From Akkermansia muciniphila (GTDB lineage: Bacteria > Verrucomicrobiota > Verrucomicrobiia > Verrucomicrobiales > V1-33): a DNA stretch of 64,000 nt. Shown here piece after piece: positions 1 to 22,857 of the stretch (position 1 is the first letter of the stretch; each line of letters begins with the position of its first letter). The position numbers were made by a program, and so were the translations under genes. The stretch lies in contig CAMAUV010000003.1 in the NCBI GenBank assembly GCA_945861415.1, positions 64,781-128,780 on the forward strand. The letters are read 5' to 3'. The notes under the pieces were generated by a model. The model saw nothing but the letters and a program-made list of their open reading frames with translations, was not told where the DNA came from and ran no database searches.

Positions 1-1
1 A

Positions 2-3083: not shown

Positions 3084-3086
3084 ACC

Positions 3087-3578: not shown

Positions 3579-3698
3579 CGCCGCAAAGCGCAGCGGGCCT
3601 GAATTGAGAGAGCCCCAAATTTTTGTTTAGCGAGTGTAAAGGTGATTGCTCACCACCCCAGAAACGGCTTTGATGGCGCCAACACCTTATATCATCTT

Positions 3699-5574: not shown

Positions 5575-5581
5575 GCGCGCC

Positions 5582-6841: not shown

Positions 6842-6845
6842 GACT

Positions 6846-7904
6846 ATGCGCCGCATCCTCGCATTCCTCATGGCGCTCACCATCTCTGCTGCGGCTGCTC
6901 CGGGACTCACCCGCGAACAGGCCTCCCGATTCGCCGCACTGGCAATGAAGGGCATCGCGAAGGAATTCCCCAACAAAATGGACCATGTCATGGATCGTCC
7001 GGATGCGGTGAAGAGCCCGAAGCAGTTGCACCCCGCCTTCTACGGCTGCTTTGACTGGCATTCCTCTGTGCATGGCCACTGGATGCTCATCCGGCTGCTC
7101 AAGCTGCATGCGGAGTTGCCGGAAGCCGCCGCCATTCGCGCCGGGCTGCGGACGAATCTTACCAAAGAAAACCTCGCCGTGGAGACAGCCTATTTGAAGC
7201 GCCCCGGCACAGGCAGCTTTGAACGCACCTACGGATGGGCATGGCTACTCAAGCTGACAGAGGAACTCCATGGCTGGGACGATCCCGACGGCAAGGCATG
7301 GGCTGCGAACCTTGCTCCGCTGGCGGAGGCTTTCGTGCAGCGCTATCTTGAGTTCTTGCCTCGGCAGACCTATCCCATCCGTACCGGCGTGCATCCCAAT
7401 ACGGCTTTCGGGCTCGCCTTCGCGCTAGATTTTGCGCGCACCACCGGCCGCAAGGACCTCGAGAAACTGGTCGCGCAGCGTGCAAAGGATTACTTTTCTG
7501 CCGACAAAAACTACCCGGCCTCATGGGAGCCAGGTGGGGAGGACTTCTTCTCGGCCGCGCTGATGGAGGCGGACCTCATGCGCCGTATTCTGCCTGTCGA
7601 GGAATTCCGGGTCTGGTTCCGCGGCTTTCTTCCGGAAGTGCCCGCATCGCTGCTGACTCCGGCTATCGTCTCCGACCGCAGCGATCCCAAAATCGTGCAT
7701 CTCGACGGCCTCAATCTCTCCCGCGCCGCCTGTCTCTGGAGCATTGCCCGCGCCTATCCAAAAGGCGACCCTCTCCGCGCACTGCTGGGGGATTCCGCTC
7801 AGCGTCACGCGGACGACTCGCTGCCGCATGTGGCCAGCGGCGACTATGCGGGCGAGCACTGGCTGGCGAGCTTCGCGGTCTGGATGCTTTCAGCCCGGGA
7901 GTAG
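6846..7904 (+). CDS. Secreted DUF2891-like protein
   Basis: ATG 6846 gives the signal MRRILAFLMALTISAAAAPG. The tracked start 6531 overlaps the upstream gene. HPAFYGCFDWHSSVHGHWMLIRLL matches my recollection of the DUF2891 signature. Confidence 0.55.
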   Translation: MRRILAFLMALTISAAAAPGLTREQASRFAALAMKGIAKEFPNKMDHVMDRPDAVKSPKQLHPAFYGCFDWHSSVHGHWMLIRLLKLHAELPEAAAIRAGLRTNLTKENLAVETAYLKRPGTGSFERTYGWAWLLKLTEELHGWDDPDGKAWAANLAPLAEAFVQRYLEFLPRQTYPIRTGVHPNTAFGLAFALDFARTTGRKDLEKLVAQRAKDYFSADKNYPASWEPGGEDFFSAALMEADLMRRILPVEEFRVWFRGFLPEVPASLLTPAIVSDRSDPKIVHLDGLNLSRAACLWSIARAYPKGDPLRALLGDSAQRHADDSLPHVASGDYAGEHWLASFAVWMLSARE

Positions 7905-7959
7905 AAAACTCTTCATCGTTTCCTTTGGCATCCGGGAAAATCCGCGCCACTGACACGGC

Positions 7960-8745
7960 ATGAGCAGACCAGACGGACGTGCCACAGATCAGATGCGGCC
8001 TATCAAATTCATCCCTCACATCGCCCCCAACGCCACCGGCAGCGTGCTGTGCTGCTTCGGCAAAACGTGGGTTATTTGCACCGCCACGATCGAAGAGAAC
8101 GTGCCTCGTTGGATGAAAGAGCAGAATGTGTCCGGCGGTTGGTTAACTGCGGAGTATTCTATGCTGCCTGCCTCGACTCATGACCGCAAGGCGCGCGACA
8201 TCAGCAAGGGCCGCCTTGACGGTCGCAGTTCAGAGATTCAGCGCCTCATCGGCCGGTCACTACGGGCCGTAGTGGATCTCAAGGAACTGGGCCAGCGCAC
8301 GCTTTGCATCGACTGCGACGTGCTTCAGGCCGATGGCGGCACACGCACTGCCAGCATCACCGGCGCCTGCGTGGCCAGCGCACTGGCTTTCGACAAACTG
8401 GTCGGCGCAGGCAAAATTAAGAAGACCCCGCTGCGCCGCATGGTGGCCGCCGTCAGCGCCGGCATATGCAAGGATGAAGCCTTGCTGGATCTCAACTACC
8501 CCGAGGACAAAGATGCCGCTGTGGATGCGAATTTCGTCATGGATGAGGATGGCAACTTTGTTGAATTGCAGGGCAGCGGCGAGGAAAGCACCTACACTTC
8601 TGCGCAGTTCAACACCCTGCTCGCTCTCGGTCAAAAGGGCATCAAAGAACTTTGCGATCTCCAGCGGGCAGCTATTCGCGCCGCCGTAGAGTCCGCCAGC
8701 ACCGATGCGCTGCAGTCTCTCGCAACGATGTTTGGGAAGAGGTAA
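7960..8745 (+). CDS. rph: Ribonuclease PH
   Basis: MSRPDGRATDQMRPIKF...GSVLCCFGKTWVICTATIEENVPRWMK...WLTAEYSMLPASTHDRKARD is the canonical RNase PH N-terminus. It has a roughly 20-aa C-terminal tail. Confidence 0.9.
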   Translation: MSRPDGRATDQMRPIKFIPHIAPNATGSVLCCFGKTWVICTATIEENVPRWMKEQNVSGGWLTAEYSMLPASTHDRKARDISKGRLDGRSSEIQRLIGRSLRAVVDLKELGQRTLCIDCDVLQADGGTRTASITGACVASALAFDKLVGAGKIKKTPLRRMVAAVSAGICKDEALLDLNYPEDKDAAVDANFVMDEDGNFVELQGSGEESTYTSAQFNTLLALGQKGIKELCDLQRAAIRAAVESASTDALQSLATMFGKR

Positions 8746-8828
8746 GGTTGTTCCGGTTCAAACAACAAGATAGGAACCACTGACCTAAGTTCAGTCATTG
8801 AACGCAGCAGAGCACGCCCTGAAATTGA

Positions 8829-9995
8829 TCAGGCTCTGTCCCGCAGATGCTGAATAGCGCGCTCGACCGCAGCCCCGTCCATCTCATGAACCTCAAGGGC
8901 ACGGCCGGGCTCCGTGACGAGGGTGATGGTTAGCTCGCCGCCGAGGTGCTCGCGGAAGTCCTCCAGACCGCGTAAGACGCTGAGCTCGCCATCCGGTTCA
9001 CGGGCGGCCAGTGCTTCGTGCCACAGGCAAAATCCGGCAGCTTCAATCAATTTCAGGATTCGCGAGCAATTCTCCTCGCTTAGCCGGCCGGTGTGTTGTG
9101 CATATAAGAGATCAACAGCCATGCCAATGGCCACCGCTTTGCCGTGGCTGAGTGCAAAGGCGGTCATCGGCTCAAGCTTGTGGGCGATCCAGTGGCCGAA
9201 GTCGAGTGGCCGGGCGGACCCGAGCTCAAACGGATCGCCGCCAGTGCAAATGTGGCGCACGTGCAATTCCGCACTGCGGCGAATGAGCCGACGCAGCAGC
9301 GCATCGTCCAAGGCGCCGAGGGCCGCAGCGTTTTGCTCGAGCTCTCCGTAAAACTCAGCGTCCCGGATGAGGGCGACCTTGATGGCCTCAATGACGCCAT
9401 CCCGCTTGTCATCTGCGGGCAAAGTCTGGAGAAAGCGATGGTCGTTCACCACCGCCTGCGGAACGGCGAACGAGCCCACCCAGTTTTTCTTGGTAAAGAA
9501 ATTCACACCGTTCTTCACCCCCACTCCTCCATCGCCCTGGCTGAGTGTCGTCGTGGGCATTCGCACGTGCCGGATGCCCCGGTGGGCCGTGGCCGACGCA
9601 AATCCGGCGAGGTCGAGCAGGGCTCCCCCACCGATGGCGATGAGCGTACTATGCCGGTCAATGCCCGCCGCGTTGATGGCCGCCCACAACCGCTCCACAA
9701 GCGGCCAGTGGTTTTTGCACGCCTCGCCACCTTCGACCACCAGCGGAGCCCCGGAAAGCCGGTGGCTCCCTCCATTCTGAGCAAACCATGCAGAGATACT
9801 CTCAGCGAGCCCGGCGTGCGCCAGAGCCACGGCAGCCTCCAGCACCACCAGCACTTTGCGGGACCGGGTGGGCGATCCGGCACCCTCCAGCGCCCGGGTG
9901 ACTACGGAGTTTCCGGAGTCAAACGCCCCCTCAGTGAAGAACACACGGTGCGGGTATTGTAGCTGGACGGTCTCTTGGATGACGAATTCTGACAT
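8829..9995 (-). CDS. 3-dehydroquinate synthase family protein (sugar-phosphate cyclase superfamily; subtype unresolved)
   Basis: IAIGGGALLDLAGFASATAHRGIRHVRMPTTTLSQGDGGVGVKNGVNFFTKKNWVGSF and LDFGHWIAHKLE...SHGKAVAIGM align to the nucleotide- and metal-binding blocks of DHQS-type enzymes. Confidence 0.65.
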   Translation of the reverse strand: MSEFVIQETVQLQYPHRVFFTEGAFDSGNSVVTRALEGAGSPTRSRKVLVVLEAAVALAHAGLAESISAWFAQNGGSHRLSGAPLVVEGGEACKNHWPLVERLWAAINAAGIDRHSTLIAIGGGALLDLAGFASATAHRGIRHVRMPTTTLSQGDGGVGVKNGVNFFTKKNWVGSFAVPQAVVNDHRFLQTLPADDKRDGVIEAIKVALIRDAEFYGELEQNAAALGALDDALLRRLIRRSAELHVRHICTGGDPFELGSARPLDFGHWIAHKLEPMTAFALSHGKAVAIGMAVDLLYAQHTGRLSEENCSRILKLIEAAGFCLWHEALAAREPDGELSVLRGLEDFREHLGGELTITLVTEPGRALEVHEMDGAAVERAIQHLRDRA

Positions 9996-10058
9996 GAGCG
10001 GGCCGGAGGAAACGCAGCTGTGGCCCGGTTGCTTACGGGAAATGGAATTTTTCCCTCG

Positions 10059-11105
10059 TCAAGGCGACGGCTGACCGCACCTCATCTTCCCCCACTCCTG
10101 ACAATACGGAAATACTCCTCCATATCCCCGAAGTTGTTCTCCCATGTCGTATACATGGCGCCCTCCATCCCCCGGAAGACCTTCCCATGACCCGGCAAAA
10201 TCCCCGCAGGCGAGGCAGTAATGGTCGCGGGCATTGTGGTGAGGGGTGAACATATCACTCCAGACGTAAATTCTCGCCGCCGGATCGATCTCCCGCAGGA
10301 TGTTCACACACGTGCGGGCATTTTCGGCGAGCGGTTCCCCTGCGCTAAGGCCCCAAGCGCGACAGGAAGCACAGTGATTCCAGACACGCACCTCGTCATG
10401 GCTCATCATGGAGCCGGAAGGTTCCCCCAATGCGTTCACGCGTTTCGCCTGATCCCGCAACTGTAACACGGCACGAGGTTCGGAAGGGCAGATCACCGCC
10501 TGATCGTCGTGGACAGTCGCCGCACGGTAGTAGCTGGCGAGCAGCCGCGTGTCGTCCGGAAGCTTTTTCTCCAAAAGGGGCGGTTCATGCCAAACGATGA
10601 GCACACCGTTGTAGGGTTTTATGCCCATGAGAGGGTCGCTGAGCTTTGCAAAACCCCTCCCTTCTACCAGCGAATTGCCGGCCGCAGTCACAAGCAATGG
10701 TGCACCCTCCCGGCGGACCAGATTCAGAAACGCCACCTCTCCGAGCTTAGCGTCATCCCACCAGAGTTCGCCTGTCTTTCCGTCCCAGCATTCCAGATAA
10801 AGCGTCGCCTCTGCGCAGCCCTGACTGTTGAAGACCACGTGATAATCCGTCCAGCCCTGAGTCTTCGCCACTTTGAGGTAATCTGAGCAAAGCCAGCGCC
10901 CGTTGCCATCCATGAACTTCGGGTCGGGCGTTCCGGAAAACTCTTTCGTCTTCACGCGAATTGAAAGGTGATACTGCCGCCATGGCTGGGCCTTCACTCT
11001 CTGAGTGATGCGGGCGTTTTGACCGCTGGGGTCTTTGACATACGCGACACCATCTTTGGAAATCACGTTGTCGTCCTTCCAGCCCCACAGGGCCAGATCG
11101 CTCAT
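10059..11105 (-). CDS. CBM-like plus TIM-barrel glycosidase-like protein; both termini doubtful
   Basis: The N-terminal part has a CBM4/9-like pattern (RITQRVKAQPWRQYHLSIRVK...GWTDYHVVF...LYLECWDGKTGELWWDDAKLGE). Later MMSHDEVRVWNHCASC and YVWSDMFTPHHNA resemble hexosaminidase-like TIM barrels. There is no signal peptide. The C-terminal 30 codons look out of frame (see finding). Confidence 0.45.
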   Translation of the reverse strand: MSDLALWGWKDDNVISKDGVAYVKDPSGQNARITQRVKAQPWRQYHLSIRVKTKEFSGTPDPKFMDGNGRWLCSDYLKVAKTQGWTDYHVVFNSQGCAEATLYLECWDGKTGELWWDDAKLGEVAFLNLVRREGAPLLVTAAGNSLVEGRGFAKLSDPLMGIKPYNGVLIVWHEPPLLEKKLPDDTRLLASYYRAATVHDDQAVICPSEPRAVLQLRDQAKRVNALGEPSGSMMSHDEVRVWNHCASCRAWGLSAGEPLAENARTCVNILREIDPAARIYVWSDMFTPHHNARDHYCLACGDFAGSWEGLPGDGGRHVYDMGEQLRGYGGVFPYCQEWGKMRCGQPSP

Positions 11106-11252
11106 GTCGCCGCCTTCCAACGCAGGCTCAACGGCGGTGTTCGCGCGAGCAATGAGCGCCCGGAGTGTTCCTCTGTCGACCGCGATACTAAGGCGCGGTC
11201 CACCAACTTACTGCTTCCCTCGCATCTGAGACTGCCTTAAGGTGATACTAAC

Positions 11253-12191
11253 ATGAACCGCCGAAAACTTCTTGCCGCCGCCCCTCTCGCTCTCGCCGCC
11301 AGCCGCCTCACCGCTACCGATGCCCCGTCGGCAGCCGGGGTTGCCAAACCCAGTCACAAATACCGAATCGGTGTCAGCACTTACTCCTTCTGGCACTTTG
11401 ACCAAACCACCGACATATGGCGGGACATCAACAAGTGCCTTGAGGCCGCCTGCGAGATGGGCTTTGACGGCCTTGAAGTGCTTCAGGTGCAAATGACCAA
11501 CAGCAGCCCGGCCGCGCTGCGCAAAATCAAGAGCCGCGCCTTCACCCTCGGACTCGACCTCATGGGATTTTCGACCCACCAGTCATTTGTTTTTCCCGAG
11601 GAGCAGAAACGCACGGACAACATTCTCAAAACCACCCAATTTCTTGAACAGGCCTACGAACTCGGCATCCCGACCATCCGCGTGAACACCGGTCGATGGG
11701 GCACGAGTAAGAATTTCGACGCACTCATGGCAAACCGCGGCATCGAGCCCCGCCTCGAAGGTTTCACGGACAATGACGGCTTTAAGTGGGTTATCGACAG
11801 CTTCGAAAAACTCATCCCTGAAGCGGAAAAGCGCGGCGTGATCATGGGCCTCGAAAACCACTGGGGTCTCGGCATTGATGTGGCCGGCGTTAAGCGTGTG
11901 GTCGACGCGATCAAGAGCCCATGGCTGCAGGTCACCCTAGATACCGGCAATTTTCTCGAAGATCCCTATGACCGCCTAGCTCAGCTCGCGCCGCAAACCG
12001 TGCTCATGCAGGCCAAAACCTACTACGGCGGCGGACTTTGGTATTCGCTGGATCTGGACTACGACCGGATCGCCAAAATCATGCGCGACGCTGGCTACCG
12101 CGGCTACATTTCACTCGAAATGGAAGGCAAGGAAGACCCGCTCAAAGCAGTGCCAAGGAGCCTAGAGCTGCTGCGCAAGCATTTCTCCTGA
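11253..12191 (+). CDS. Tat-signal sugar phosphate isomerase/epimerase (xylose isomerase-like TIM barrel)
   Basis: MNRRKLLAAAPLALAASRL twin-arginine signal. TIM-barrel blocks FDGLEVL, GVIMGLENHWG and TLDTGNF. Confidence 0.75.
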   Translation: MNRRKLLAAAPLALAASRLTATDAPSAAGVAKPSHKYRIGVSTYSFWHFDQTTDIWRDINKCLEAACEMGFDGLEVLQVQMTNSSPAALRKIKSRAFTLGLDLMGFSTHQSFVFPEEQKRTDNILKTTQFLEQAYELGIPTIRVNTGRWGTSKNFDALMANRGIEPRLEGFTDNDGFKWVIDSFEKLIPEAEKRGVIMGLENHWGLGIDVAGVKRVVDAIKSPWLQVTLDTGNFLEDPYDRLAQLAPQTVLMQAKTYYGGGLWYSLDLDYDRIAKIMRDAGYRGYISLEMEGKEDPLKAVPRSLELLRKHFS

Positions 12192-12252: not shown

Positions 12253-13845
12253 TCAAATTCTCAACTCGCGGGCGCTGAGGATTGCAGGGTGCCGTGTGAG
12301 ATCCGCAAGTACTGCATCGCCCACAGTTCCATCGACGTTGAGCACCGTCAGGGCTACGCCACCCGAACTGTCACGGCTGAGTGACATGTTGGCGATGTTC
12401 ACCTTATGCTGTCCCAGAAGCGTGCCTACGGCCCCGACGATGCCGGGCTGGTCACGATTCTCGTAGATGAGGAGTGTTCCTTCCGGATAGGCTTCAATGC
12501 GTCGGCCGTTGATGCCAACGATGCGCGGGCTCTTGCCGAAGAAGGTGCCGGCCACAGTGGCGCGCTGTTCGCCGCTACCGGCAGTGACTTCCACCAGTTC
12601 CGTAAATTCCGCTGGGGTGGCTAAGCGGCTTTCTGTAAGTCGCAGGCCCATGTTTTCGGCCACTGACGGAGCGTTCACCCAATTCACGCCCTCGCTGTAG
12701 GCGACTTCGAGGTAACCCTTGAGCACCGCGCGGGAAATTAGCGTGGTATCCATTTCGCTAACTTTGCCACTATAGTTTACGCGAAGTACTTCCGACTGCT
12801 TGGGCGCGAGTTGTGCGGCTAGGCGGCCGAGGGTTTCGGCGAAGGTGAGATAGGGCCCGATGGCGTCGAGCGTCTGGCGGTCGACACTTGGCATGTTCAC
12901 GGCATTTGCCACGATGCCGTCCACTAGCGCATCCTTCAGGAGTTGGGCGACTTCAATGCCCACATTTTCCTGCGCTTCTGCGGTGCTGGCACCAAGGTGA
13001 GGGGTGAGCACTACGTTCGGCAGCGCCAAAAGGGGATCGTCCTTGGCGGGCGGCTCGTTTTCAAACACGTCGAGCGCAGCACCGGCCACGTGACCACTTT
13101 GCAGTGCCTCCACCAGCGCGGCTTCCTCAACAAGGCCGCCCCGGGCGCAATTGATGATGCGCACGCCCTTCTTGCACTTCGCGATGCGCTCTCTGTTCAG
13201 GAGATACTTCGTCTCTTTAGTGAGCGGCATGTGCATGGTGATGAAGTCCGCATCTGCGATGGCCTCCTCTACCGTCTGCATGAGTTCGATGCGCAGGATC
13301 TGGGCTCGGCTCGGGCTGAGATAGGGGTCGTAGGCCACAACCTTCATTCCGAAGGCCATCGCGCGGCGGGCGAATTCGGTGCCGATGCGGCCCATGCCGA
13401 GAATGGCGAGCGTCTTACCGTTTAATTCTACTCCTTCAAAGCTCTTCCGTTCCCACTTTCCGATCACCATGCTGGCGTGTGCCTGCGGAATGTGCCGCGC
13501 AAGGCTCATCATCAAACTGAACGCATGCTCCGCAGTGCTCACGGTATTCCCGCCGGGCGTGTTCATAACAATGACGCCGTGTTTGGTAGCGGCCGCGAGA
13601 TCGATGTTGTCTACCCCCACACCGGCGCGGCCCACGGCTTTCAACTTCGTGGCCTTCTCAAGTACGGCGGCGTTGATTTTGGTCTGGCTGCGCACCGCGA
13701 TCCCGTCGTACTCGTGCGCTGTGGCCAGCAATTCATCCGGTTTGATGCCAATTTTCACCACCACCTCAAGTGACGGGCAGGCCTGAAGATCTGCGATACC
13801 TTTTTCTGAAATTGGGTCAGCGACGAGTACTTTCTTTTTATCCAT
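12253..13845 (-). CDS. serA: D-3-phosphoglycerate dehydrogenase (long form with ASB and ACT domains)
   Basis: NAD-binding GKTLAILGMGRIGTEFARRA, catalytic-region RIINCARGGLVEE and TPHLGAST, and a C-terminal ACT-like end. 530 aa. Confidence 0.9.
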   Translation of the reverse strand: MDKKKVLVADPISEKGIADLQACPSLEVVVKIGIKPDELLATAHEYDGIAVRSQTKINAAVLEKATKLKAVGRAGVGVDNIDLAAATKHGVIVMNTPGGNTVSTAEHAFSLMMSLARHIPQAHASMVIGKWERKSFEGVELNGKTLAILGMGRIGTEFARRAMAFGMKVVAYDPYLSPSRAQILRIELMQTVEEAIADADFITMHMPLTKETKYLLNRERIAKCKKGVRIINCARGGLVEEAALVEALQSGHVAGAALDVFENEPPAKDDPLLALPNVVLTPHLGASTAEAQENVGIEVAQLLKDALVDGIVANAVNMPSVDRQTLDAIGPYLTFAETLGRLAAQLAPKQSEVLRVNYSGKVSEMDTTLISRAVLKGYLEVAYSEGVNWVNAPSVAENMGLRLTESRLATPAEFTELVEVTAGSGEQRATVAGTFFGKSPRIVGINGRRIEAYPEGTLLIYENRDQPGIVGAVGTLLGQHKVNIANMSLSRDSSGGVALTVLNVDGTVGDAVLADLTRHPAILSARELRI

Positions 13846-13934
13846 GTAAAGTTGTTAGTAATGCACTATGGGCGTATGCTCGGTTACATTATGCAACCAA
13901 GCAGTTCTAATATACGCTAATTTATAAAAGTAAT

Positions 13935-13964
13935 GACCGCACTTGAGGCTACCCAAGTGCGGTC
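13935..13964 (-). terminator. Rho-independent terminator candidate after the PEP-CTERM gene
   Basis: Perfect 11-bp inverted repeat GACCGCACTTG-(8 nt)-CAAGTGCGGTC, 27 nt past the stop at 13992. On the minus strand it is followed by ATTACTTTTATAAA. Confidence 0.55.
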
Positions 13965-13991
13965 AAAAAGGTGTCAAAATTCGAGAACCGA

Positions 13992-14618
13992 CTAACGGCG
14001 GCGGCGCGCGAGACCAAGAACGCCCATCAATGCCAATACGGCACTTGTGGGTTCAGGAATTCCGTACAATTTAAGATAATCGTTTCCTGTCGCATTATCA
14101 ATTTCAGTGCCGACGATCGTATTGATTAATGCGGGGCTACCTGCAATAGCATTGACACTGCTTGCAGCAGTCACATCAGCAGGGAAGAGCCAGTTAGTTC
14201 CACTAGCGGTCGTGCCTGTGTAGAAAGCGTATTCTGTAGCATTATCAAGATTAGGAGTATTTCCGATGAGGACGTAAATCTGACGAGTATTGAAATCATC
14301 TACAGTTGTGCCCGCGGCTCCGGCGGTAGCAGTCATTGCTGTGCCGTTAGTAATCTTAGCTCCAGCGGCATCACCATTTGCGGTAGTTCTTGCAAACTCC
14401 TTGAAGCCAGACCTGATTTCTGCAAAAGTGGCAGTGCTAGAGGGCAGCTGGCCAGAGAATGAACCGACAGCATATTGAACAGTAGTTGTAATCAAACTTC
14501 CTGAAAGACTCTGGAGGCGAACCCCAGCAGCGAATCCAGTGCCAGTAACGATTGAAGCACCTTGTGCAGAGCAAAGCATCGCTGCAAAAGCAGCTGCGAT
14601 AGTTAGTTTTTTATGCAT
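13992..14618 (-). CDS. PEP-CTERM sorting-signal protein, Thr/Gly/Ala-rich
   Basis: Sec signal MHKKLTIAAAFAAMLCSAQG. The C-terminus is GIPEPTSAVLALMGVLGLARRRR (PEP motif, hydrophobic helix, Arg cluster). Confidence 0.8.
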   Translation of the reverse strand: MHKKLTIAAAFAAMLCSAQGASIVTGTGFAAGVRLQSLSGSLITTTVQYAVGSFSGQLPSSTATFAEIRSGFKEFARTTANGDAAGAKITNGTAMTATAGAAGTTVDDFNTRQIYVLIGNTPNLDNATEYAFYTGTTASGTNWLFPADVTAASSVNAIAGSPALINTIVGTEIDNATGNDYLKLYGIPEPTSAVLALMGVLGLARRRR

Positions 14619-14656
14619 AGTGTAGTAAATGATTGAATGTTGATTGAATAACGAAT

Positions 14657-15694
14657 TTATGGAGCAATTGTGACAGCCGGCACCGTAAGGATCGCTGCAG
14701 TTGGCGATTTACGGCTGAGGATCACGCCTTCATACTCAGGGACGTTTTTGTCGTCTTGCGAATTAGTTCCGGGGTCAAAAAAGCCCGAGGCGCCCGTAGC
14801 CGCAGCGTCGGCGGCAAAGAATGTGAGGAGAGCTTGGGAACCTCCGGAGGGAGCGAGGAGGAACTGAATTTCGTCAGCGTCAGCAGTGCTAGTCCCCTGC
14901 AATACTCCAGTTGTGGTGACTCCAGTGTTGAACCCGGAAGCCCCGAGAGTGACGCCAGTGGCGCGCATAGGGGCAATCCAGTTGGTTCCAGTGAAGACGT
15001 CAATTTGCGTCTTCGTAGTTTTGACGTGACCAACTGATATCATGGAGGCACCAGACGTCAACTTACGAACAACTTGCACTGCAGTGCCGGGGACGATAGC
15101 CACATTGTCGGCAGAGCCACCACCCGGATCAAACCAACCGTCAGTGGGAGCTCCATCGGCACCGGTTGCATAGAAATAGCTACGCACAGCCTGCGGGGTA
15201 GAGCCTGAATCAAGAATCTGAACTTCGTCCGCATTGTCGGTACCCGTACCCGTATCGAGGCCAGCGGCATTTGCCCCCATCAACCCGAGGATAGTCATGT
15301 GTTTGCGGACAATAAATGATGTGCCAGCACCGGCACTGGCAGGCAAAGCATCTTTCGTTGTGATAGTGCCAGCGGTTGAACTCTGAATAGTGCTCCACCA
15401 ACCTTCATTAGGTCCGGACTTAATTTCTAAATAACTTGATTCATCAAGTCCCGCAGTTGCGCCAGTGGCTTCTACGCTAGCGGTGCCGCCAGCATTGACA
15501 GTAACTGCAGCGAAGTCAGTTTTGTTGACCAAAGTCGCGGCGACAAGAGTAACCGAGGGAATGGTAGCAGAGACCGCAGCATTGATCGGATGAGTGATGT
15601 AGCCTACGGGATCAGTGACAGCGGTTTGGGCATAGGAACCCGAGACTGCCGCGAGCGTGGTCGCACTAATGATGAGGGAGAGTTTGGTTTTCAT
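14657..15694 (-). CDS. Secreted Thr/Gly/Ala-rich protein built from repeated modules
   Basis: Sec signal MKTKLSLIISATTLAAVSGSYA. It has internal repeats (ADEVQILDS..RSYFYATGADGAPTDGWFDPGG / ADEIQFLLA..LTFFAADAAATGASGFFDPGT). There is no PEP-CTERM and no prepilin signal. Confidence 0.7.
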   Translation of the reverse strand: MKTKLSLIISATTLAAVSGSYAQTAVTDPVGYITHPINAAVSATIPSVTLVAATLVNKTDFAAVTVNAGGTASVEATGATAGLDESSYLEIKSGPNEGWWSTIQSSTAGTITTKDALPASAGAGTSFIVRKHMTILGLMGANAAGLDTGTGTDNADEVQILDSGSTPQAVRSYFYATGADGAPTDGWFDPGGGSADNVAIVPGTAVQVVRKLTSGASMISVGHVKTTKTQIDVFTGTNWIAPMRATGVTLGASGFNTGVTTTGVLQGTSTADADEIQFLLAPSGGSQALLTFFAADAAATGASGFFDPGTNSQDDKNVPEYEGVILSRKSPTAAILTVPAVTIAP

Positions 15695-15950
15695 TGGTTT
15701 GGTGGGTGGAATTTGGCGGAATATAGTGCGATATTAGAAGAAAATTGGCGGATTGTAAAGGATTTCGTGCGGAATTCCCGCATTTTTTTGCGAAGGGTTC
15801 AATCCTTGCCGTGATTTACATCGCAGTAAACTTACCGTGAGCAAGTTACACGAACCGTTTCGGGGAAAGGAAAGGGTAAATCCTGTAAAAGTTTAGTTCA
15901 AATTCGCAATTCTGAATGATGGAGGGGTAGGCCCTCATTAGCTTTCGAGG

Positions 15951-18626
15951 CTACTTGCGCCCCTTATTTTTCCGCGGTGTTGCGCTTTGGACCTCTACGG
16001 GAAGGCCGGCATCAGGAGTGTCGAAGGGGACATCTTTCTCATAAGTGGGGAGGACGACGTCTTTGGTGATGCGTTCGGGCTTGGCAAATTCGATGGCTTC
16101 GGATCCGACAACGGTGCGCTGAAGCTCACTGACATTCACATCCACCATGTCATCCGCAGTCTCGATAATGCGGGCCTGCAGGAGGACAACGAGTTCTCGG
16201 CGGCGCTTATCGCGGTTGTTAGAGCCGGTGAGATATTTGAGCACCGGAACCTTGCTCAGGAAGGGTAGTCCGGACTGGGATTTGGAATCGGAGTCCGAGA
16301 TTAATCCGCCAAGGACAAGGATTGCTCCATTGGGCACAGTGATACGAGTATTGAGTTCTTGGGTGGCAATGTTAGGAATGGCATTTCCATTGATGACGGT
16401 TTCGCCGTTTATAGTGTCGTTAAGCTGATCAACCGTCAGGGTGATTTCGTTCTTGGAGTTGATGAGGGGCGTCACACCCAAAGACAGAACAACGTTTTCG
16501 TATTCGATGCTGCTGTTGAGCGACTGAGTGCCGCCGGTCACGATAGTGGACTGCTGGTTGCTGGGGATCGGTACGCGTTCACCGCTGGAGATGGTGCCGA
16601 GTTCGTTGTTAGCGATGGTGATGTGGGGCTTGGCGAGAAGCTTGGAATTGCTTGATGTTTCCAGCGCCCTAACATACGCATTGAACAGGTCTCCTGCGGC
16701 GGCATAGAGGTTGAAACCGCTACCGGTAGCAGGGAAAGCGGCGAGGGTGGAGAGGGTGGAGGGGTCGATGAATGCGCCATTGGGGCCGGAGCGGAAGAAT
16801 CCGGCGGCATTGACGCTCTCTCCTCCGATGTCTAGGGTCTCCACTTTGCGCAGGAAGTCGATGGAGGTGTCCATGTTGTCGCCGATGGACATCTGAGCAA
16901 TGACCGCATTGATGTGCACTTGGAAAGGCCGCCGATCCATTTCCTTAACGAGGTCGCTGACTCGCTGAATGGAATCAGGAGGGCCGGAGACGATGAGGCT
17001 GTTGGTGCGGGGGTCGGAGATGAGGAGCGTTTTGCCGACTGTCTGGGCACGGGGAGGGTCGGTAGTGCCACCCCCGGCTCCACCGGCGCTGCCCACGCTC
17101 TGGCGCGTTGAGCGGCCGCCACTGCTACCACCTCTAGCGCTGCTGGAGGAACTGCCGCGGTTGGCGATGCTGCTGCGGGCATTACCGCCAGCCGTTCCGC
17201 TGCCAAAGTCTCCGGCTTCACTGCGGCCACCGGTGGTCCGGGCACTGCCGCCGCCACTGCTGCTGGCACCGCCTCCTGAACCTGCCTGACCGGCACCGGT
17301 GGCTTCGAGGGAGGTCACGGCGAGGTCAAAAAATTCGGCTACGGGGATGTAGCGCAACTGCTGGGTGAGCAGATTCTTTACACGGCTGGGCTCATCGAAT
17401 TCGCGGATGAGTTTCCTAAGGTATTCGACGTGCTCCTCAGGGCCGTTAAGGAAAACACGGTTGGTGCGGGGATCGGCTTTTACGATCATGTTGCTGCCAT
17501 CCGGCATTTGTCCGCTGGCGGCACCGGGAGCGGCTTGCGCAACGACAGGCTGGGCTACAGCTCCTGGCTGCAGATTGACGGCAGCGGCGGCGGGGGATAT
17601 GCTGCGGAATCCGGTCGAGCCGCTTCTGCCTTTACCTTGCGCCTGGGCTTGCAGGATCTGGTCAAGAATGGACTGCACATCCTCAGCGGAAGCGCGCTCA
17701 AGCTCCACCCACTGATGCACCAACTTGACAGGCGGGAGGTCCATCTTTTCCACCGCTCTAACGAGGGTGCGGACATTAGAGACACTCTCGTGAACAAAAA
17801 GGGAGTTGGAGGAAGGAACAGCAATGAGCTTCGTCCACTGGTGGTTGGGGATGGCTTGGGCCAAGACTTGGGAGGCCTCGTCCACAGGAAGATGCTTCAA
17901 GGTCAGCAGGTAGCTAACGGGCTGCTCCTCTTCGGGTAAGTCTGCCAGTTTCGTGTAGATGATCCCGCCGTCCTTGGGCGGCTCAGTTAGCGGGGAGTTA
18001 CCCTGCCCCTGCAGCATGAGCGCCTTGTCTATATTTTTGCTGTAGGGCTGAATGACCACGCCCTGGAGCAGAAGACCGGCTTTAAGGAACTCGATCGCTT
18101 CCGCCGGCGCCAAAGGAGACTGTGGATTGGAAGCGAAAGTTAACTGGGCCTGCAGGTTGGGCCCGCGGAGCACGTGGCGGCCGGAGATTTCCTCATACTT
18201 CCCGATCACTTCTTCGATAGTGGCGTCCTTGAAAGCGATTTCCCACATCCCGTTTTCCTCCGTGGCCTCAGCAGTGCCCGTGGCAGCGCCGGGAGCGGGA
18301 GCAAGGCCGGGGCCGTTGCGAGCCCGTCCGCCCGGGGGCGAAGTCCGTCCCGGTATCGTCACCGGGGGCCGGGGAGTAGTGCCGGGGGCTAGGCCGGGAG
18401 TCGCAGGGGCGGGGGTAGCCGCCGGCGGGGCGGGAGCGGCGGCTGTGGGCGGCACCACGGTTTGCTTGGGAGCGGTAACTGCAGGGGCTCCGACTGACTG
18501 GCCGGTGGCATCTTGGGCTAACGGTTTGCCGCGGAGAGATGGCGAAAGGTTTGCGGAGCCCTGACCGGGAGCGGTCATCGGGAAGGCGAGCAGCAGTAGC
18601 GGAAGAAGGCGAGTGGGGCGTGACAT
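15951..18626 (-). CDS. Secretin (GspD/PilQ family) with long low-complexity inserts
   Basis: C-terminal secretin core: LLAKPHITIANNELGTISSGERVPIP...NTRITVPNGAILVLGGLISDSDSKSQSGLPFLSKVPVLKYL...RRRELVVLLQARII. It has N-domains of the ..DPRTN.L.V.G.. type and a signal peptide. Confidence 0.9.
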   Translation of the reverse strand: MSRPTRLLPLLLLAFPMTAPGQGSANLSPSLRGKPLAQDATGQSVGAPAVTAPKQTVVPPTAAAPAPPAATPAPATPGLAPGTTPRPPVTIPGRTSPPGGRARNGPGLAPAPGAATGTAEATEENGMWEIAFKDATIEEVIGKYEEISGRHVLRGPNLQAQLTFASNPQSPLAPAEAIEFLKAGLLLQGVVIQPYSKNIDKALMLQGQGNSPLTEPPKDGGIIYTKLADLPEEEQPVSYLLTLKHLPVDEASQVLAQAIPNHQWTKLIAVPSSNSLFVHESVSNVRTLVRAVEKMDLPPVKLVHQWVELERASAEDVQSILDQILQAQAQGKGRSGSTGFRSISPAAAAVNLQPGAVAQPVVAQAAPGAASGQMPDGSNMIVKADPRTNRVFLNGPEEHVEYLRKLIREFDEPSRVKNLLTQQLRYIPVAEFFDLAVTSLEATGAGQAGSGGGASSSGGGSARTTGGRSEAGDFGSGTAGGNARSSIANRGSSSSSARGGSSGGRSTRQSVGSAGGAGGGTTDPPRAQTVGKTLLISDPRTNSLIVSGPPDSIQRVSDLVKEMDRRPFQVHINAVIAQMSIGDNMDTSIDFLRKVETLDIGGESVNAAGFFRSGPNGAFIDPSTLSTLAAFPATGSGFNLYAAAGDLFNAYVRALETSSNSKLLAKPHITIANNELGTISSGERVPIPSNQQSTIVTGGTQSLNSSIEYENVVLSLGVTPLINSKNEITLTVDQLNDTINGETVINGNAIPNIATQELNTRITVPNGAILVLGGLISDSDSKSQSGLPFLSKVPVLKYLTGSNNRDKRRRELVVLLQARIIETADDMVDVNVSELQRTVVGSEAIEFAKPERITKDVVLPTYEKDVPFDTPDAGLPVEVQSATPRKNKGRK

Positions 18627-18706: not shown

Positions 18707-19606
18707 CTATGGCTGAGTGGGCAGGACGACACGGCGGCGGCCTGTGCCGTTGGAGGATTTTCCGTCTCTGCTGCTACCGGGATTTGTTTGCGGAGGGGGC
18801 GGGACGTTGGGTTGCGTCACACTGGGCTGCCCCGTCATGTTATTGATACCCTGCTGGACATTGAGCGGATTGACCCCGCCGGGATTGGTCGCGTTGTTAT
18901 TGCCCGTATTCGCCGGAGTCCTGCCAGCAATTCCGTTCGCCTCTGCCCATTTCTGATAGGCGCCGTTGTTATTGCCCGTATTCTCCGGAGTCCTGCCAGG
19001 GATGAATGGGGCTGGAGGAGCAGCGTTGTTGGGAGCATTACCGCCCGGGCGCGGCATCACCGGCCGGGGGACCATGGTGCCGTTCGGGCCGGGCACCATT
19101 TGCACTCCTCCGCCACCACCGCCGGCAGAACCGCCTTTAGCATTTTTGAGGGTATCCTCTTCAAACTTGATAGGCTTTTGCTGGCCGTCCTTTTCCAGAA
19201 TCACTTCCGAGGAGGCGAGGGATTTTCCCTTTTTGAGCCCGATGATGCGGAATCCGCTGTCGTCGCTCTTTCTCATGGGAGACGCATCGCCCCAGACGGT
19301 GACGCGCTGCTTTTCCTTGCCAACAAAAAGGTAAACAGACATCATCTTGCCGCCACCGGCATACCCCGCGAGGGAGACGGCCTCAAAAGGATCTGCCGCA
19401 GCGGCCACTTCCTCTTTGGGAGCTTCGAACTCGAACGGGCTCTTTTTCCGCATGTGCGCGTAACGGGAAATGTCATACTGCTTTGGCAAATAGGGGGTGT
19501 AGCCATTTTCCGTGACGGCAGCAGGCGCGTTTTCATTGGCGAAAACGGGGGCAGCTATGCTGAGCAAGGCAACGTAGGGCAGAAGGGGAGTCAGTTTCGT
19601 TTTCAT
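18707..19606 (-). CDS. PilP / GspC-HR-like periplasmic protein with Gly/Pro/Asn-rich tail
   Basis: Signal peptide, then a beta-rich block (VSLAGYAGGGKMMSVYLFVGKEKQRVTVWGD...FRIIGLKKGKSLASSEVILEKDGQQKPIKF) like PilP/GspC HR domains. Its position is immediately upstream of the secretin. The start overlaps the upstream stop (ATGA). Confidence 0.5.
   Translation of the reverse strand: MKTKLTPLLPYVALLSIAAPVFANENAPAAVTENGYTPYLPKQYDISRYAHMRKKSPFEFEAPKEEVAAAADPFEAVSLAGYAGGGKMMSVYLFVGKEKQRVTVWGDASPMRKSDDSGFRIIGLKKGKSLASSEVILEKDGQQKPIKFEEDTLKNAKGGSAGGGGGGVQMVPGPNGTMVPRPVMPRPGGNAPNNAAPPAPFIPGRTPENTGNNNGAYQKWAEANGIAGRTPANTGNNNATNPGGVNPLNVQQGINNMTGQPSVTQPNVPPPPQTNPGSSRDGKSSNGTGRRRVVLPTQP
18893..18999. 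repeat. 35-bp direct repeat (1 mismatch), copies 72 bp apart, inside the pilP-like tail
   Basis: GTTGTTATTGCCCGTATTC(G/T)CCGGAGTCCTGCCAG occurs at 18893-18927 and 18965-18999. It encodes GRTPANTGNNN and GRTPENTGNNN. Confidence 0.85.
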
Positions 19607-20346
19607 GGAGTGGGCGGGGTGACGGGCGCCGCTTCAGCAGGAGTCGGGTCCGGCAAAGCGGGAGGCGCCAAGGGCACGACAGTAGCGTCAGCGGCTTTGT
19701 TTTCAGGAGCCGAAGTATCAGCCGACGGTTTGGAAGTTTGGACACCCGGGGCTTCGGGTTGTTCAACTCCTTCGGGAGTTTCTTCATTCGTGAAAACGGA
19801 GCCCTCTGGTTTCGCCCACCACTGCTCCAATTCCACAGTGACCTGCACACTTTGCTCGGCGTCATTGTTCTCGTTCTTGCGGGGCACGAGAGTAATGCGG
19901 GGCACAAAACGAAAATCCTTTGGCGACTGGAGACGATAGATAAAATCCATCACCCCAGTCCATTCCCCCTCCACAGTGGACTGGTAACGGCTCTTGTCGA
20001 AATGCTCGCCATCCCTGGGCGGCAGACGCTGGAATTTAGTAACATCCACACCAGTACCGTTGATCAACTGCCCCTGCACGAGATCGCCCAAGTGGGTCTC
20101 CCGCTGACCTTCGTCGGCATAAGTCCTTATGTTCCCGGCAATGAACTCCTCCACCTTCAGGGCCTCGCCGGCCTTGCCGCTCCACGCCTTGAGCTGCTGG
20201 ACACGACCATTCAGCCGACCCTTCTCCCGGTCCAGCTTCCCCTGGGCTCCCATGAGCCATGTGAAGCCGATGAAGTTGGCAAAAACAAAGGTGCCGATGC
20301 CGACAAAGGTCAGCATGCGTCTCTCGCGGTCATTGAGCTGGGGCAT
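19603..20346 (-). CDS. PilO / GspM-like bitopic protein
   Basis: ATG 20346 gives MPQLNDRERRMLTFVGIGTFVFANFIGFTWLMG (short cytoplasmic tail plus TM). This is followed by a coiled coil and an alpha/beta domain, then a Pro-rich tail. It overlaps the upstream gene by 17 nt. Confidence 0.5.
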   Translation of the reverse strand: MPQLNDRERRMLTFVGIGTFVFANFIGFTWLMGAQGKLDREKGRLNGRVQQLKAWSGKAGEALKVEEFIAGNIRTYADEGQRETHLGDLVQGQLINGTGVDVTKFQRLPPRDGEHFDKSRYQSTVEGEWTGVMDFIYRLQSPKDFRFVPRITLVPRKNENNDAEQSVQVTVELEQWWAKPEGSVFTNEETPEGVEQPEAPGVQTSKPSADTSAPENKAADATVVPLAPPALPDPTPAEAAPVTPPTP

Positions 20347-21607
20347 TGTCGTCAGGTTTGATGTTTCCGGTAATCTGGAATGGCACAACCGCCCCGCGGG
20401 CCGGCTCAACCTTGTAATCCCATTTAAAGTCCTTGAGTGCGTTGTTGCCCTTAATGCGGGTGTTGTAGAGAATGGCAGGACGGTCACTGGCGTTGGCCTC
20501 CCCCTTTATGGTGATGCCTGCCGTTTCCGCGCCATTGTCGTCCACCTTGCGCTCGATCTCTACATTCGTGACCCGCACGCCGATGCTCTGCTGGTAGAGC
20601 GGGGTCAAGGCCTGGTTGAGCAGCTCGATGGGGTAGTGGTCGGAGTTGGTCACGCCTTCCAGCACCTGTTTCTTGATAAGCGATTTCTCCACAGAACCGA
20701 ATTGCGCTTCCAATTGGTTTGCCTGGCCGCGCAGGTCGTCCACGTCACTTTTGGCCATGAAATAGCTGGCGGCGGAGAATGCCGGCACCGCGAGATATAG
20801 CAGTAGGCCGAGAAGAATGTAGTTCCGGATGCGCTTCATGCGCGCTGACCGGATCTTGGCCATGGCCACCGATACCGGCTCGATGCTGCTCACCTCCTGC
20901 GGCACGGCCGGAGCGGGTCGGCGCTCGCTACGTACACGGGCGCCAAACACCCGCTGCAATTCCTCCACCGCGCCGGGCTCAACCGCCTCGGTCCAGAGGA
21001 CAATACCCTTGATCTCCTCCACAATGCCCTGGGTGAAGAGCGGCATGAGCAGTTGCTCTAGTTCCTGCGCCGTTTCCATTCGCAGCATATCGCTCGTAAG
21101 CGCGTGGTAATAGACCGGCTGGTCCCCGCGGGTAATGCAAAAAACGAGGCGGCCCAACTCCCGCCAGATGACGAGGTGGTCATCTGGCAAATAATAGAGG
21201 TAGGGCGAAATCTCAAAGCGCTGCGGAGCCTCCTTAGGCAGCACGTCGGCCACCTGCGCGTTGAGCACGGAGGCAAGGATCAGCGTATTGGTCTCGTTGC
21301 GTTCCACTGTGCGGTAGTCCACCAAGCGGCCCACCGGGGTGTCCGGCTTCAGCCCCTGTTTTTCGAGCTGAAAATCCACAATATCGGGCAGTAGGTCGAC
21401 ATCGCCGGTAGCTGCCCGGACAGGCACGGCGAAAGCGGCGCTTATAGGATAGCCGAACACGCCGGCAGTCTTAAATGCGGCTGCGCCTTCATCCACCGGC
21501 AGGGTCTGCGCGATCTGCCAGCCCTCGGCGCTGTATTTCCACAACTCCCACGACTGTTCTCCCGGCAGACAAATGCCTGCCTCGGTATTGGCACTGGGTG
21601 ACTTCAT
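20330..21607 (-). CDS. GspL-like / fused PilM-PilN-like assembly protein
   Basis: About 265-aa cytoplasmic part, one TM (IRNYILLGLLLYLAVPAFSAASYF), then a coiled coil plus a PilN-like periplasmic domain (..ITIKGEANASDRPAILYNTRIKG..PFQITG). It starts directly after the gspK-like stop. Confidence 0.5.
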   Translation of the reverse strand: MKSPSANTEAGICLPGEQSWELWKYSAEGWQIAQTLPVDEGAAAFKTAGVFGYPISAAFAVPVRAATGDVDLLPDIVDFQLEKQGLKPDTPVGRLVDYRTVERNETNTLILASVLNAQVADVLPKEAPQRFEISPYLYYLPDDHLVIWRELGRLVFCITRGDQPVYYHALTSDMLRMETAQELEQLLMPLFTQGIVEEIKGIVLWTEAVEPGAVEELQRVFGARVRSERRPAPAVPQEVSSIEPVSVAMAKIRSARMKRIRNYILLGLLLYLAVPAFSAASYFMAKSDVDDLRGQANQLEAQFGSVEKSLIKKQVLEGVTNSDHYPIELLNQALTPLYQQSIGVRVTNVEIERKVDDNGAETAGITIKGEANASDRPAILYNTRIKGNNALKDFKWDYKVEPARGAVVPFQITGNIKPDDNAPAQ

Positions 21608-22660
21608 TTATTCAAACAAGGGGACTTCTTCACGAGTAAGTATTTGGGGAGTTCCGTTACGATTGCGCACGATCAAAACCACGCGTTTCCGGTATTCGCC
21701 GACCGTGGCCACGCTCTCGATGTGCACGGTCTGGTCATTGACGCCAAACACGGCGCTGACCATTGAGTCCGCGGGATCGAGGCCCAGCCCCTCAAGGGCT
21801 GCATTCATTTCTTCGGCACTTTGAAGCTTGATATCGTCCTCTGTTTCCTCAATGCCGTCAGAGCCCCATCGATCGGTGACCAGTTCCTGTGCCTCCACCA
21901 GCAAGTCTGGATAGTCCCGGGCAGGATCGGAGGTCCCTTTCACGGCCAAAGCCGCCGACGCGATAACCTTGGCCTCCGCTTCGTTCAGGTCGATCTTGCC
22001 GGCGCTGTAGATGGTGAAGAAATCCCGCCAGTCGGGAAGCAGCGCAGTGATTTCATCAAAACCGGGAACCAGCGTCATTTCGTCCAGATCATAAAACGGC
22101 CGGTTGAAGGGATATGGAGTATTTTCGCCGTACATGTCCACATAGTCATTCTTCTCCAGTCCATGGGTGAGATTGGAGCTGTCCGCATCCACCCAGTCGA
22201 CCAGACAGTCGAAGAGGACGGCCGCCTGATCATTGCTCATCCCCCAGATAGTGAACCACTTGGTTAGAAAGGTGCGGCTGGCTTCACCCTGCTGGAGCAG
22301 AAAGTTGATGTTCTGGCGCCCGCCCTCACCTTTGATCTTTACGGAGACCATTTCGCCATCCTCCAACTTTTGCGTCAACGGCAGCAACACGGCATCCGCC
22401 ACCCCGGGGCCTTGATTCAGCAGGCCAAAGTCGAATTCCTTCACCACCGGATTCATCGCGATGTTGATCCCCATTTCCGCCAGTTGCCGGGCGCGAAAGG
22501 CCTGCTTTTGGGCCATGGTCATGGTCAGGTCCTGACTGACGACCACATTGGCACTGTGAATGAGCATCATCATCATGCCAATGAGCCACATGACCAGCAG
22601 CAGCGACGAACCGCGCCGGGCATGGCGGCAGCGGAGGTCGGAGAGCGGGAGGAGTTTCAT
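21608..22660 (-). CDS. GspK-like minor pseudopilin
   Basis: RRGSSLLLVMWLIGMMMMLI pseudopilin-type N-terminal helix, central LVDWVDADS..GLEKNDY, and C-terminal LDEMTLVPGF...KIDLNEAEAKVI as in the T2SS protein K family. ATG 22660 is preferred over tracked 22711. Confidence 0.7.
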   Translation of the reverse strand: MKLLPLSDLRCRHARRGSSLLLVMWLIGMMMMLIHSANVVVSQDLTMTMAQKQAFRARQLAEMGINIAMNPVVKEFDFGLLNQGPGVADAVLLPLTQKLEDGEMVSVKIKGEGGRQNINFLLQQGEASRTFLTKWFTIWGMSNDQAAVLFDCLVDWVDADSSNLTHGLEKNDYVDMYGENTPYPFNRPFYDLDEMTLVPGFDEITALLPDWRDFFTIYSAGKIDLNEAEAKVIASAALAVKGTSDPARDYPDLLVEAQELVTDRWGSDGIEETEDDIKLQSAEEMNAALEGLGLDPADSMVSAVFGVNDQTVHIESVATVGEYRKRVVLIVRNRNGTPQILTREEVPLFE

Positions 22661-22857
22661 GGCGGAGGACGGGCCGGAAGGGGATAGTGGAAGGAAAGCG
22701 CCGGGGAGCAAATGGGAAGTAACTCCCTTGTCCCCTTTTTAGACCACCACCGCCCCTGCGGCGTTCAATACTGCCCATCCCGCGCCTAGCGGACGGATTT
22801 CCTTCACAACTTGCGCAGGATGCGTGCAGTCCCCTGCTTGACGGTCCTTGCCGCCCA

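Follow-up and report, generated by a model that had tools for sequence, protein, structure and literature searches.

A predicted surface-protein cassette downstream of a GspD-like secretin gene in Akkermansia muciniphila

Results

Two adjacent genes for secreted proteins

The stretch analyzed here, 64 kb of Akkermansia muciniphila DNA (the window), carries two adjacent genes, here named A and B, that form a conserved cassette on the minus strand downstream of a secretin gene (Table 1). A first-pass annotation had placed two such genes at this locus, and both their coordinates and their setting were confirmed by the list of open reading frames (ORFs) and by the Pfam Secretin match of the upstream neighbour (2.4e-41). 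The gap between the secretin gene and A, with A and B downstream, is 256 nt in the window. The same annotation had assigned Sec rather than prepilin signals to the two proteins. Type IV pilins and pseudopilins carry an N-terminal cleavage/methylation motif, G-F-T-L-x-E, followed by a hydrophobic helix; this motif was absent from A and B, and a six-frame regular-expression scan of the window otherwise returned only irrelevant chance matches. Both proteins have ordinary signal peptides, so that the assignment holds: as read from the sequence, the N-terminus of A is a Sec type-I-like signal peptide (MKTKLSLIISATTLAAVSGSYA, cleaved before Q), and that of B (MHKKLTIAAAFAAMLCSAQG, cleaved before A) shows the n-, h- and c-regions expected of one. 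The mature proteins are both acidic (isoelectric point 4.4-4.5), Cys-free and rich in Ala, Thr and Gly. An Rfam scan of positions 13700-16100 gave no match.

A and B form an invariant pair

In the related loci with downstream sequence, the ORF next after A was of the B type in every case (34 of 34). These ORFs encode 173-231 amino acids (aa), starting with a signal peptide and finishing with a PEP-CTERM tail or its IPEVSS variant, and all the B proteins are mutually alignable. The A-then-B gene order is essentially invariant across the relatives, and the pairing extends to the distant members P0174 and P0100 (the latter truncated) and also to P0017. A further distant member, P0150 (locus L041), had no downstream B-like ORF, but its contig is of low coverage and frameshifted, and it was given no weight. 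In a 572-aa protein, P0099, a PEP-CTERM motif at residues 203-226 is followed by a TIGR02597-type domain at residues 231-571, which is apparently the B-then-A order read as one gene, by fusion or through a missed stop codon. Locus L011 carries two tandem B-type genes after A.

The pairwise distances among 13 secretin-linked cassettes were then compared. Those of A and B were correlated with each other (r = 0.79), and those of A/B against the secretin gave r = 0.31 and 0.35. The mean distance was 0.54 for A, 0.61 for B and 0.33 for the secretin, i.e., the pair diverges about twice as fast. These values point to a common history of A and B that is partly independent of their surroundings.

A carries one internal duplication that B does not share

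According to the first-pass annotation, A contained two clear copies and a weaker third copy of a repeat module, and one copy of the same module was present in B; this shared repeat was its headline claim. The two clear copies proved to be real. Segments 155-211 and 273-329 of A aligned with a Smith-Waterman score of 69 against 23.7 +/- 5.0, a score that none of 1000 shuffles reached, and the comparison of family sub-alignments of 24 sequences with hhalign matched module M2 (148-245) to module M3 (262-345) with a probability of 98.3% (E 1.4e-14), which rose to 99.1% (E 8.8e-19, 72 columns) with 151 sequences. In addition, the AlphaFold2 (AF2) model has the same strand-strand-(short helix)-strand order in M2 and M3. 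The last two regions of A are an ancient tandem duplication of a small beta-barrel-like module of ~80 residues.

The other two copies did not stand up to the same analyses. The score of the third segment of A (residues 86-131) was equalled by 157 of 1000 and 909 of 1000 shuffles, and its profile probability at two alignment depths was 0.7-3.9%, with just the short ...IVRK strand being matched. For the segment of B (residues 112-148), the shuffles that reached the score against the two modules numbered 40 of 1000 (marginal, p ~0.04) and 555 of 1000, and the 30-sequence B profile gave a probability of at most 4.8% against the A family or its modules (hhalign; 30- and 151-sequence profiles). When the whole-family profiles of B and A were compared, the signal peptide was the sole aligned stretch. 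Since the profile-profile probabilities were at most 4.8% and the shuffle scores marginal or null, A and B do not share a repeat module, and the headline claim is abandoned: A carries a single internal duplication, and B is unrelated to A.

Protein A is a diverged relative of the TIGR02597 family

No Pfam or NCBIfam model (NCBIfam at E<=1) matched A of the window. A word-indexed search gave 24 full-length homologs, with E values down to 1e-91, and a profile search of 1.84 billion representatives gave 2753 family members at E<=1e-3 and 371 at E<=1e-30, the family representatives being clustered at 50% identity. Pfam found only sub-threshold noise in all 24 homologs (Phage_BR0599 0.049, NfeD 0.075). 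NCBIfam model TIGR02597, a paralog family, was matched by 17 of the 24, and three of these exceeded its 50-bit cutoff (P0011, P0020 and P0024, with 60.4, 57.5 and 56.5 bits); the same three match A of the window over 96-100% of the length, at E 2.2e-42, 1.0e-34 and 6.8e-27, respectively. The close homologs P0002 and P0005 have no TIGR02597 match either, and A itself fails membership of TIGR02597.1 by score (curated cutoff 50 bits). The hidden Markov model check against Pfam and TIGRFAMs was therefore negative for the protein itself and positive through its homologs, and because 17 of 24 homologs match the model and three score above its cutoff, A is a diverged relative of this paralog family.

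A is a secreted protein with three beta-rich regions. Its AF2 model has a mean pLDDT (predicted local distance difference test) of 90.4 and a pTM (predicted template modelling score) of 0.86, with residues 1-26 below a pLDDT of 50. In the alignment of the family (alignment A1) conservation is highest at the two ends of the mature protein, in the near-invariant N-terminal stretch AVTDPVGYIT after the signal peptide and in WTVPAxTIAP at the C-terminus; residues V30, G31 and Y32 are invariant. Foldseek found nothing in the PDB at E<=1e-3 with the A model (best template modelling (TM) score 0.21), and against viral models it returned TM scores of ~0.2, mostly to tail or fibre proteins, together with a few domain matches of 73-81 columns to unnamed phage proteins. 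A sequence-profile search of the PDB gave a weak match of M2 (profile positions 156-211, E 0.005) to the OB-fold (oligonucleotide/oligosaccharide-binding fold) of RPA32, which hints at a small-barrel topology only. Some members of the A family carry fn3, Big_7 or PKD extensions.

One such member, at locus L046 (positions 1-12163), is a 720-aa protein with fn3, Big_7 and TIGR02597 domains whose gene adjoins those for Exosortase_EpsH, Poly_export and a UDP-glucose dehydrogenase; a kinase, a sigma-54 regulator and a TPR protein resembling PrsK, PrsR and PrsT are also among its neighbours. Such a set of genes is the classical neighbourhood of PEP-CTERM and exopolysaccharide (EPS) functions (PMC1569441). 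Locus L046 thus connects the A family with exosortase/EPS loci independently of B.

Protein B ends in a PEP-CTERM sorting signal

The C-terminal tail of B (IPEPTSAVLALMGVLGLARRRR) matched the Pfam PEP-CTERM model (PF07589) with 21.4 bits, a narrow pass of the gathering score of 20.7. TIGR02595 scored 12.6 bits on B of the window, below its cutoff of 16, and matched 18 of 30 B-family members at E<=0.1. In the alignment of these 30 sequences (alignment A2) P188, E189, R206 and R207 are invariant, and the AF2 model of B (pLDDT 78.6) is a beta-sandwich with a C-terminal helix at residues 193-206. The PEP-CTERM assignment made in the first-pass annotation was thus upheld, with a PEP motif, a hydrophobic helix and a terminal basic cluster all present. 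B is the sole PEP-CTERM ORF in the window.

The mature part of B matched no named family, the known models matching only the tail throughout the 30-sequence family. Foldseek returned just generic transthyretin-like sandwiches from the PDB (E>=0.17), and a sequence-profile search of the PDB with B gave no match. In some B homologs the sorting motif is varied, IPEVSS or VPEASS replacing PEP (L011, 7063-7674 and 8167-8820; L013, 7069-7683; L014, 7034-7669). Two genes downstream of B, three loci encode a second protein of ~211 aa with a PEP-CTERM-like tail (VPEVGVSG...RRRRRG; L020, 8808-9443; L021, 6815-7456; L024, 8806-9444).

The cassette has its own promoter and terminator

The first-pass annotation implied that A and B belong to an operon with the secretin. 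This was not borne out: the pair has a conserved promoter of its own, ~36-41 nt upstream of the start of A. The comparison of upstream regions took in 17 secretin-linked loci (L011-L016, L018-L021, L024, L026, L029, L033, L034, L038 and L040) together with L004, L009, L036 and L042. The -35 hexamer was TTTACA in 21 of 22 loci, the spacer was exactly 17 nt in all 22, and the -10 element was of the TAATnT type; 36 nt separate the -10 element from the ATG of A in the window, and 36-41 nt do so across the related loci. The architecture is that of A-tracts, then CACGAAATCC, the -35 hexamer, the spacer, the -10 element and a C/A-rich leader of 36-41 nt with the motif AGCC(C/T)AC, which may serve a regulator or act as an initial-transcribed-sequence signal. 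The A-tract upstream of the -35 hexamer is a candidate UP (upstream promoter) element. The same promoter was found at the relocated copies L004, L009 and L036; upstream of a second clade of paralogs the sequence is different. In 17 of the 18 secretin-linked loci, 193-304 nt separate the secretin stop from the start of A; this spacer is AT-rich, with the promoter in its last ~100 nt. In the window a perfect palindrome, GCGGGAATTCCGC, occupies 15767-15783, downstream of the A-tract and upstream of the -35 hexamer, without being conserved among the related loci.

At the other end, the strong terminator hairpin that had been noted after B was recovered, with a stem that contains 8 GC pairs, a U-rich tail and a folding energy of -24.5 to -27.2 kcal/mol (z = -5.4). 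From these signals the cassette is predicted to be a separate transcription unit, in the order promoter-A-B-terminator.

In 18 other genes of the window the G+C content at third codon positions (GC3) was 0.60-0.74; A had 0.51 and B 0.38, and in 15 of 15 related loci the GC3 of A/B was lower than that of the adjacent secretin gene. Both genes shun G-ending codons more than the ribosomal genes do and prefer U-ending codons for Ala and Thr. Ordinary ribosomal-type codon bias was considered as the cause of the low GC3 and found to be only partly supported: the ribosomal genes of the window also avoid G-ending codons, though their GC3 is 0.60-0.72. Because of its promoter, codon pattern and composition, the cassette is probably highly expressed.

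Linkage to the secretin is frequent and not obligatory

The gene upstream of the cassette encodes a protein with three Secretin_N stretches in addition to its Secretin domain, and with an N0 domain below threshold (17.6 bits; cutoff 27). Its best NCBIfam match is GspD (TIGR02517), with 270 bits, below the cutoff of 351. A long Gly/Ser-rich low-complexity insert (~aa 440-525) separates the N domains from the secretin domain, and the N-terminus is Pro/Ala-rich. Toward the secretin gene, on the same strand, run the genes for a GspK-like protein (T2SSK_1st, 4.1e-9; NCBIfam GspK, 1.3e-18), a 425-aa protein (p425), a GspM-like protein (T2SSM_b, 5.8e-4) and a 299-aa protein (p299), the GspK- and GspM-like matches being below their cutoffs. 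In Gsp terms the block reads GspK-(L?)-M-x-GspD, and in Verrucomicrobiales one subfamily of the cassette habitually comes right behind it. Further out, past the GspK-like gene, follow RecG, map, secY and genes for ribosomal proteins.

In order to assess the linkage, one genome per species was scanned with the N-terminal motif of A, which gave 32 loci, all in Verrucomicrobiota. The order p425-GspM-p299-secretin-A was found in 18 of them, with B next wherever the sequence continues. A metagenome search seeded with the secretin C-domain gave two loci, a number from which no frequency of the cassette beside the secretin can be estimated, and both had A ~300 nt downstream; locus L042 also places A directly after the same secretin block. 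The secretin C-domains of the linked loci are 55-73% identical. The gene beyond B differs among loci, and serA, which is found there in the window, was absent from all 32 flanks. The tie to the secretin, for which synteny in related genomes had been named beforehand as the refutation test, therefore stands.

An obligate tie does not, because the cassette is apart from any secretin in 14 of the 32 loci (one of which has too short an upstream sequence for a call) and because the evolution of A and B is independent of that of the secretin. L009, L010 and L001, three of the nearest relatives of A of the window among the genome loci (48% identity), are unlinked. In a neighbour-joining tree most of the non-linked copies form one paralog clade, and the linked copies make up the remainder, with a few relocations. 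The linked loci belong to one phylum and mostly to one order, in which the secretin linkage is frequent and old, and not obligatory.

Two side observations concern the secretin block. Protein p299 (18707-19606) has a Gly/Asn/Pro-rich C-terminal half and matched no family. With its listed GTG start, the GspM-like ORF (19603-20487) shares 158 nt with the end of the gene for p425. Most tblastn matches in relatives start at residues 35-51 (others as early as 5-19), so that translation may really begin at an ATG further downstream (MPQLNDRER...).

Table 1. Features of the A-B cassette and its surroundings in the window
Feature	Position	Strand	Description and basis
Gene A	14657..15694	minus	345-aa secreted all-beta protein, diverged TIGR02597 relative; ORF, 24 full-length homologs, AF2 model
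Gene B	13992..14618	minus	208-aa secreted beta-sandwich protein with PEP-CTERM sorting tail; ORF and Pfam
Signal peptide of A, aa 1-22	15629..15694	minus	Predicted cleavage between SYA and QT, read from sequence
Module M2 of A, aa ~148-245	14960..15253	minus	First copy of duplicated small beta-barrel-like module
Module M3 of A, aa ~262-345	14660..14911	minus	Second module copy; ends in WTVPAxTIAP
PEP-CTERM sorting signal of B, aa 187-208 (IPEPTSAVLALMGVLGLARRRR)	13995..14060	minus	Pfam PF07589
Sigma-70-type promoter of the A-B unit	15731..15759	minus	-35 TTTACA 15759-15754, 17-nt spacer, -10 TAATAT 15736-15731
A-tract upstream of the -35 hexamer, UP-element-like	15783..15789	minus	A-runs at the same place in most related loci
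Intrinsic terminator after B	13934..13965	minus	14-bp stem (13965-13934), 4-nt loop, U-rich tail
GspD-like secretin, 891 aa	15951..18626	minus	Pfam Secretin; conserved upstream neighbour
Genes resembling those of a type II secretion system (T2SS): p299, GspM-like, p425, GspK-like	18707..22711	minus	Pfam/NCBIfam and tblastn synteny

Discussion

A model for the A-B cassette

The signal peptides, the PEP-CTERM tail and the synteny described above agree with the first-pass view that the pair is secreted or directed to the surface and is tied to the secretin. Among the roles suggested there, A and B may be cargo or surface subunits. We propose that A and B constitute an autonomous exosortase-linked two-protein surface module, for which the neighbouring type II secretin is a plausible outer-membrane route, and we would give this proposal an even chance of being right. 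The link to an exosortase is drawn because B carries a PEP-CTERM tail and because a fused member of the A family lies beside Exosortase_EpsH. In the proposed pathway Sec would export both proteins, the C-terminal helix of B would retain it in the inner membrane, and an exosortase from another part of the genome would process it. Lacking an anchor, A would dock onto B, so that an abundant, fast-evolving complex would be displayed at the cell surface. By analogy with MYXO-CTERM and GlyGly-CTERM proteins, the folded A/B proteins might cross the outer membrane through the adjacent type II-type secretin. A more specific version, in which a two-component surface structure of the Verrucomicrobiales has its PEP-CTERM anchor subunit processed by the exosortase and the type II secretin carries the complex with the TIGR02597-type partner outward, is rather doubtful.

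Several observations weigh against this proposal. A genome with PEP-CTERM proteins is expected to encode an exosortase (EpsH/Xrt) and usually has several such proteins. As the first-pass annotation had stated, no exosortase is encoded in the window, which covers 64 kb of the genome and whose multi-transmembrane ORFs are a lactate permease, YidC and SecY, and there are no GspE, GspF, GspG or pseudopilin genes in it. The cassette is not co-transcribed with the secretin, it is unlinked from it in the 14 loci mentioned above, and its history is decoupled from that of the secretin (r 0.31-0.35), so that the adjacency could be synteny inherited within one order. A literature search found no paper that shows PEP-CTERM proteins using the T2SS. 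The high expression is predicted from the promoter and the codon usage only, and the low GC3 of A and B could come instead from horizontal exchange of the cassette. Finally, neither fold matched a solved structure in the Foldseek search of the PDB, and for this reason no biochemical activity can be assigned.

The chief rival explanation keeps the autonomous, exosortase-dependent module and drops the functional tie to the secretin: A and B would follow the generic PEP-CTERM route, and their place after gspD would be inherited Verrucomicrobiales gene order. We regard this as a real, though lesser, possibility. It accounts for a cassette with its own promoter and terminator, for unlinked loci that include the near relatives L009, L010 and L001, for A/B distances that barely follow those of the secretin, and for the confinement of the linked loci to one phylum and mostly one order. 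It does not readily explain why the adjacency and the 193-304-nt spacer were kept while the secretin C-domains diverged to 55-73% identity and the gene beyond B changed, or why both loci from the search that was seeded with the secretin only carry A.

A further explanation sees A as the subunit that repeats in a surface fibre or lattice, with its termini (AVTDPVGYIT and WTVPAxTIAP) as subunit contacts and B as the exosortase-anchored base. The termini are indeed the best conserved parts of A, the composition and codon bias resemble those of structural surface proteins, the predicted promoter is strong, phage tail or fibre proteins account for most of the weak fold matches, and the fn3, Big_7 and PKD extensions of some family members are typical of surface proteins. 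Nevertheless, AF2 gives a compact A monomer in which both termini are packed at a pLDDT above 90, except for the last residues (341-345, average 78). In addition, a polymer or donor-strand signature was not found, the fold matches reach a TM score of ~0.2 only, and no gene for a pair-specific assembly machine is conserved alongside, so that a fibre is improbable. Least probable is an accessory role of A and/or B at the secretin, as had been suggested in the first-pass annotation, i.e., as a pilotin, a tether to peptidoglycan or the outer membrane, or a gate cap for the assembly or regulation of GspD: both are envelope proteins and 18 of 32 loci keep them right behind gspD, but the promoter is separate and the transcription unit apparently much stronger, the linkage is non-obligate, with paralogous cassettes that have no secretin nearby, the pair evolves independently of the secretin and about twice as fast, and neither protein has a lipobox or any likeness to known pilotins.

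Both proteins belong to kinds that the databases know and that are uncharacterised, namely the wider TIGR02597 family and the PEP-CTERM proteins. The literature on TIGR02597, on exosortase-dependent surface proteins, and on PEP-CTERM with Verrucomicrobia and secretin contained no description of the A-B pair, and the papers searched appear not to describe that A is always paired with B, that A contains a duplication, that the promoter is conserved or that the cassette recurs after gspD. PEP-CTERM/exosortase systems are widespread in environmental diderm bacteria. The cassette is a compact, conserved test case for the outer-membrane route of PEP-CTERM proteins, since a tagged protein always comes with an untagged partner, from a defined promoter and repeatedly after a T2SS secretin, and it is present in cultured genera, e.g., Luteolibacter and Prosthecobacter. 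If the link to the secretin is functional, the rule that C-terminally tagged surface proteins depend on the T2SS would extend from MYXO- and GlyGly-CTERM to PEP-CTERM. The two-component version with a secretin route, if true, would open the outer-membrane passage of PEP-CTERM proteins to genetics for the first time and would define a new heteromeric module for surface display built from two folds without solved relatives. If the link is not functional, a cleaner account of a large family (>2700 representatives at 50% identity) would still have been gained, with its duplication, partner and promoter.

Comparison with known systems

The secretin (PilQ-type) of the Akkermansia Amuc_1098-1102 cluster is a very abundant outer-membrane protein (PMC4960237). 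This pilus-like cluster, to which Amuc_1100 belongs, resembles the present locus in that it is likewise a secretin operon from Verrucomicrobia and that its small envelope proteins are also poorly characterised. The secretin of the window is GspD-like instead: the Amuc_1098 family model, whose cutoff is 750 bits, scores it at only 34.8 bits. Neither p299 nor the GspM-like product was matched by any Amuc family.

With TIGR02597, an uncharacterised paralog-type model, A has in common a length of ~340 aa, a signal peptide and full-length homology; as A of the window is unmatched at E<=1, it sits in a diverged branch. In the papers searched on this family, the duplication, the PEP-CTERM partner, the promoter and the linkage to a secretin were not found.

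MYXO-CTERM and GlyGly-CTERM proteins depend on the T2SS for surface display (PMC11980579). In the MYXO-CTERM/myxosortase and GlyGly-CTERM/rhombosortase systems (e.g., VesB) a C-terminal tripartite tag on a Sec-exported protein is combined with a type II secretin, as in this locus, whereas the tag, the processing enzyme and the anchor chemistry differ, and for PEP-CTERM the route is suggested by gene linkage alone. T2SS cargo as a class is defined by export shown in experiments and is not known to have a sequence signature.

B also resembles the proteins of the PEP-CTERM/exosortase system (EpsH, XrtA; Haft et al. 2006, PMC1569441), whose tripartite tail (PEP motif, hydrophobic helix and Arg cluster) and signal peptide are also present in B; the host here is a diderm in whose phylum PEP-CTERM proteins abound, and a related A-type domain lies beside an exosortase/EPS locus. 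The present cassette departs from that system in that the tagged protein is strictly paired with an untagged partner, and in that one subfamily is located after a T2SS secretin and not in an EPS locus.

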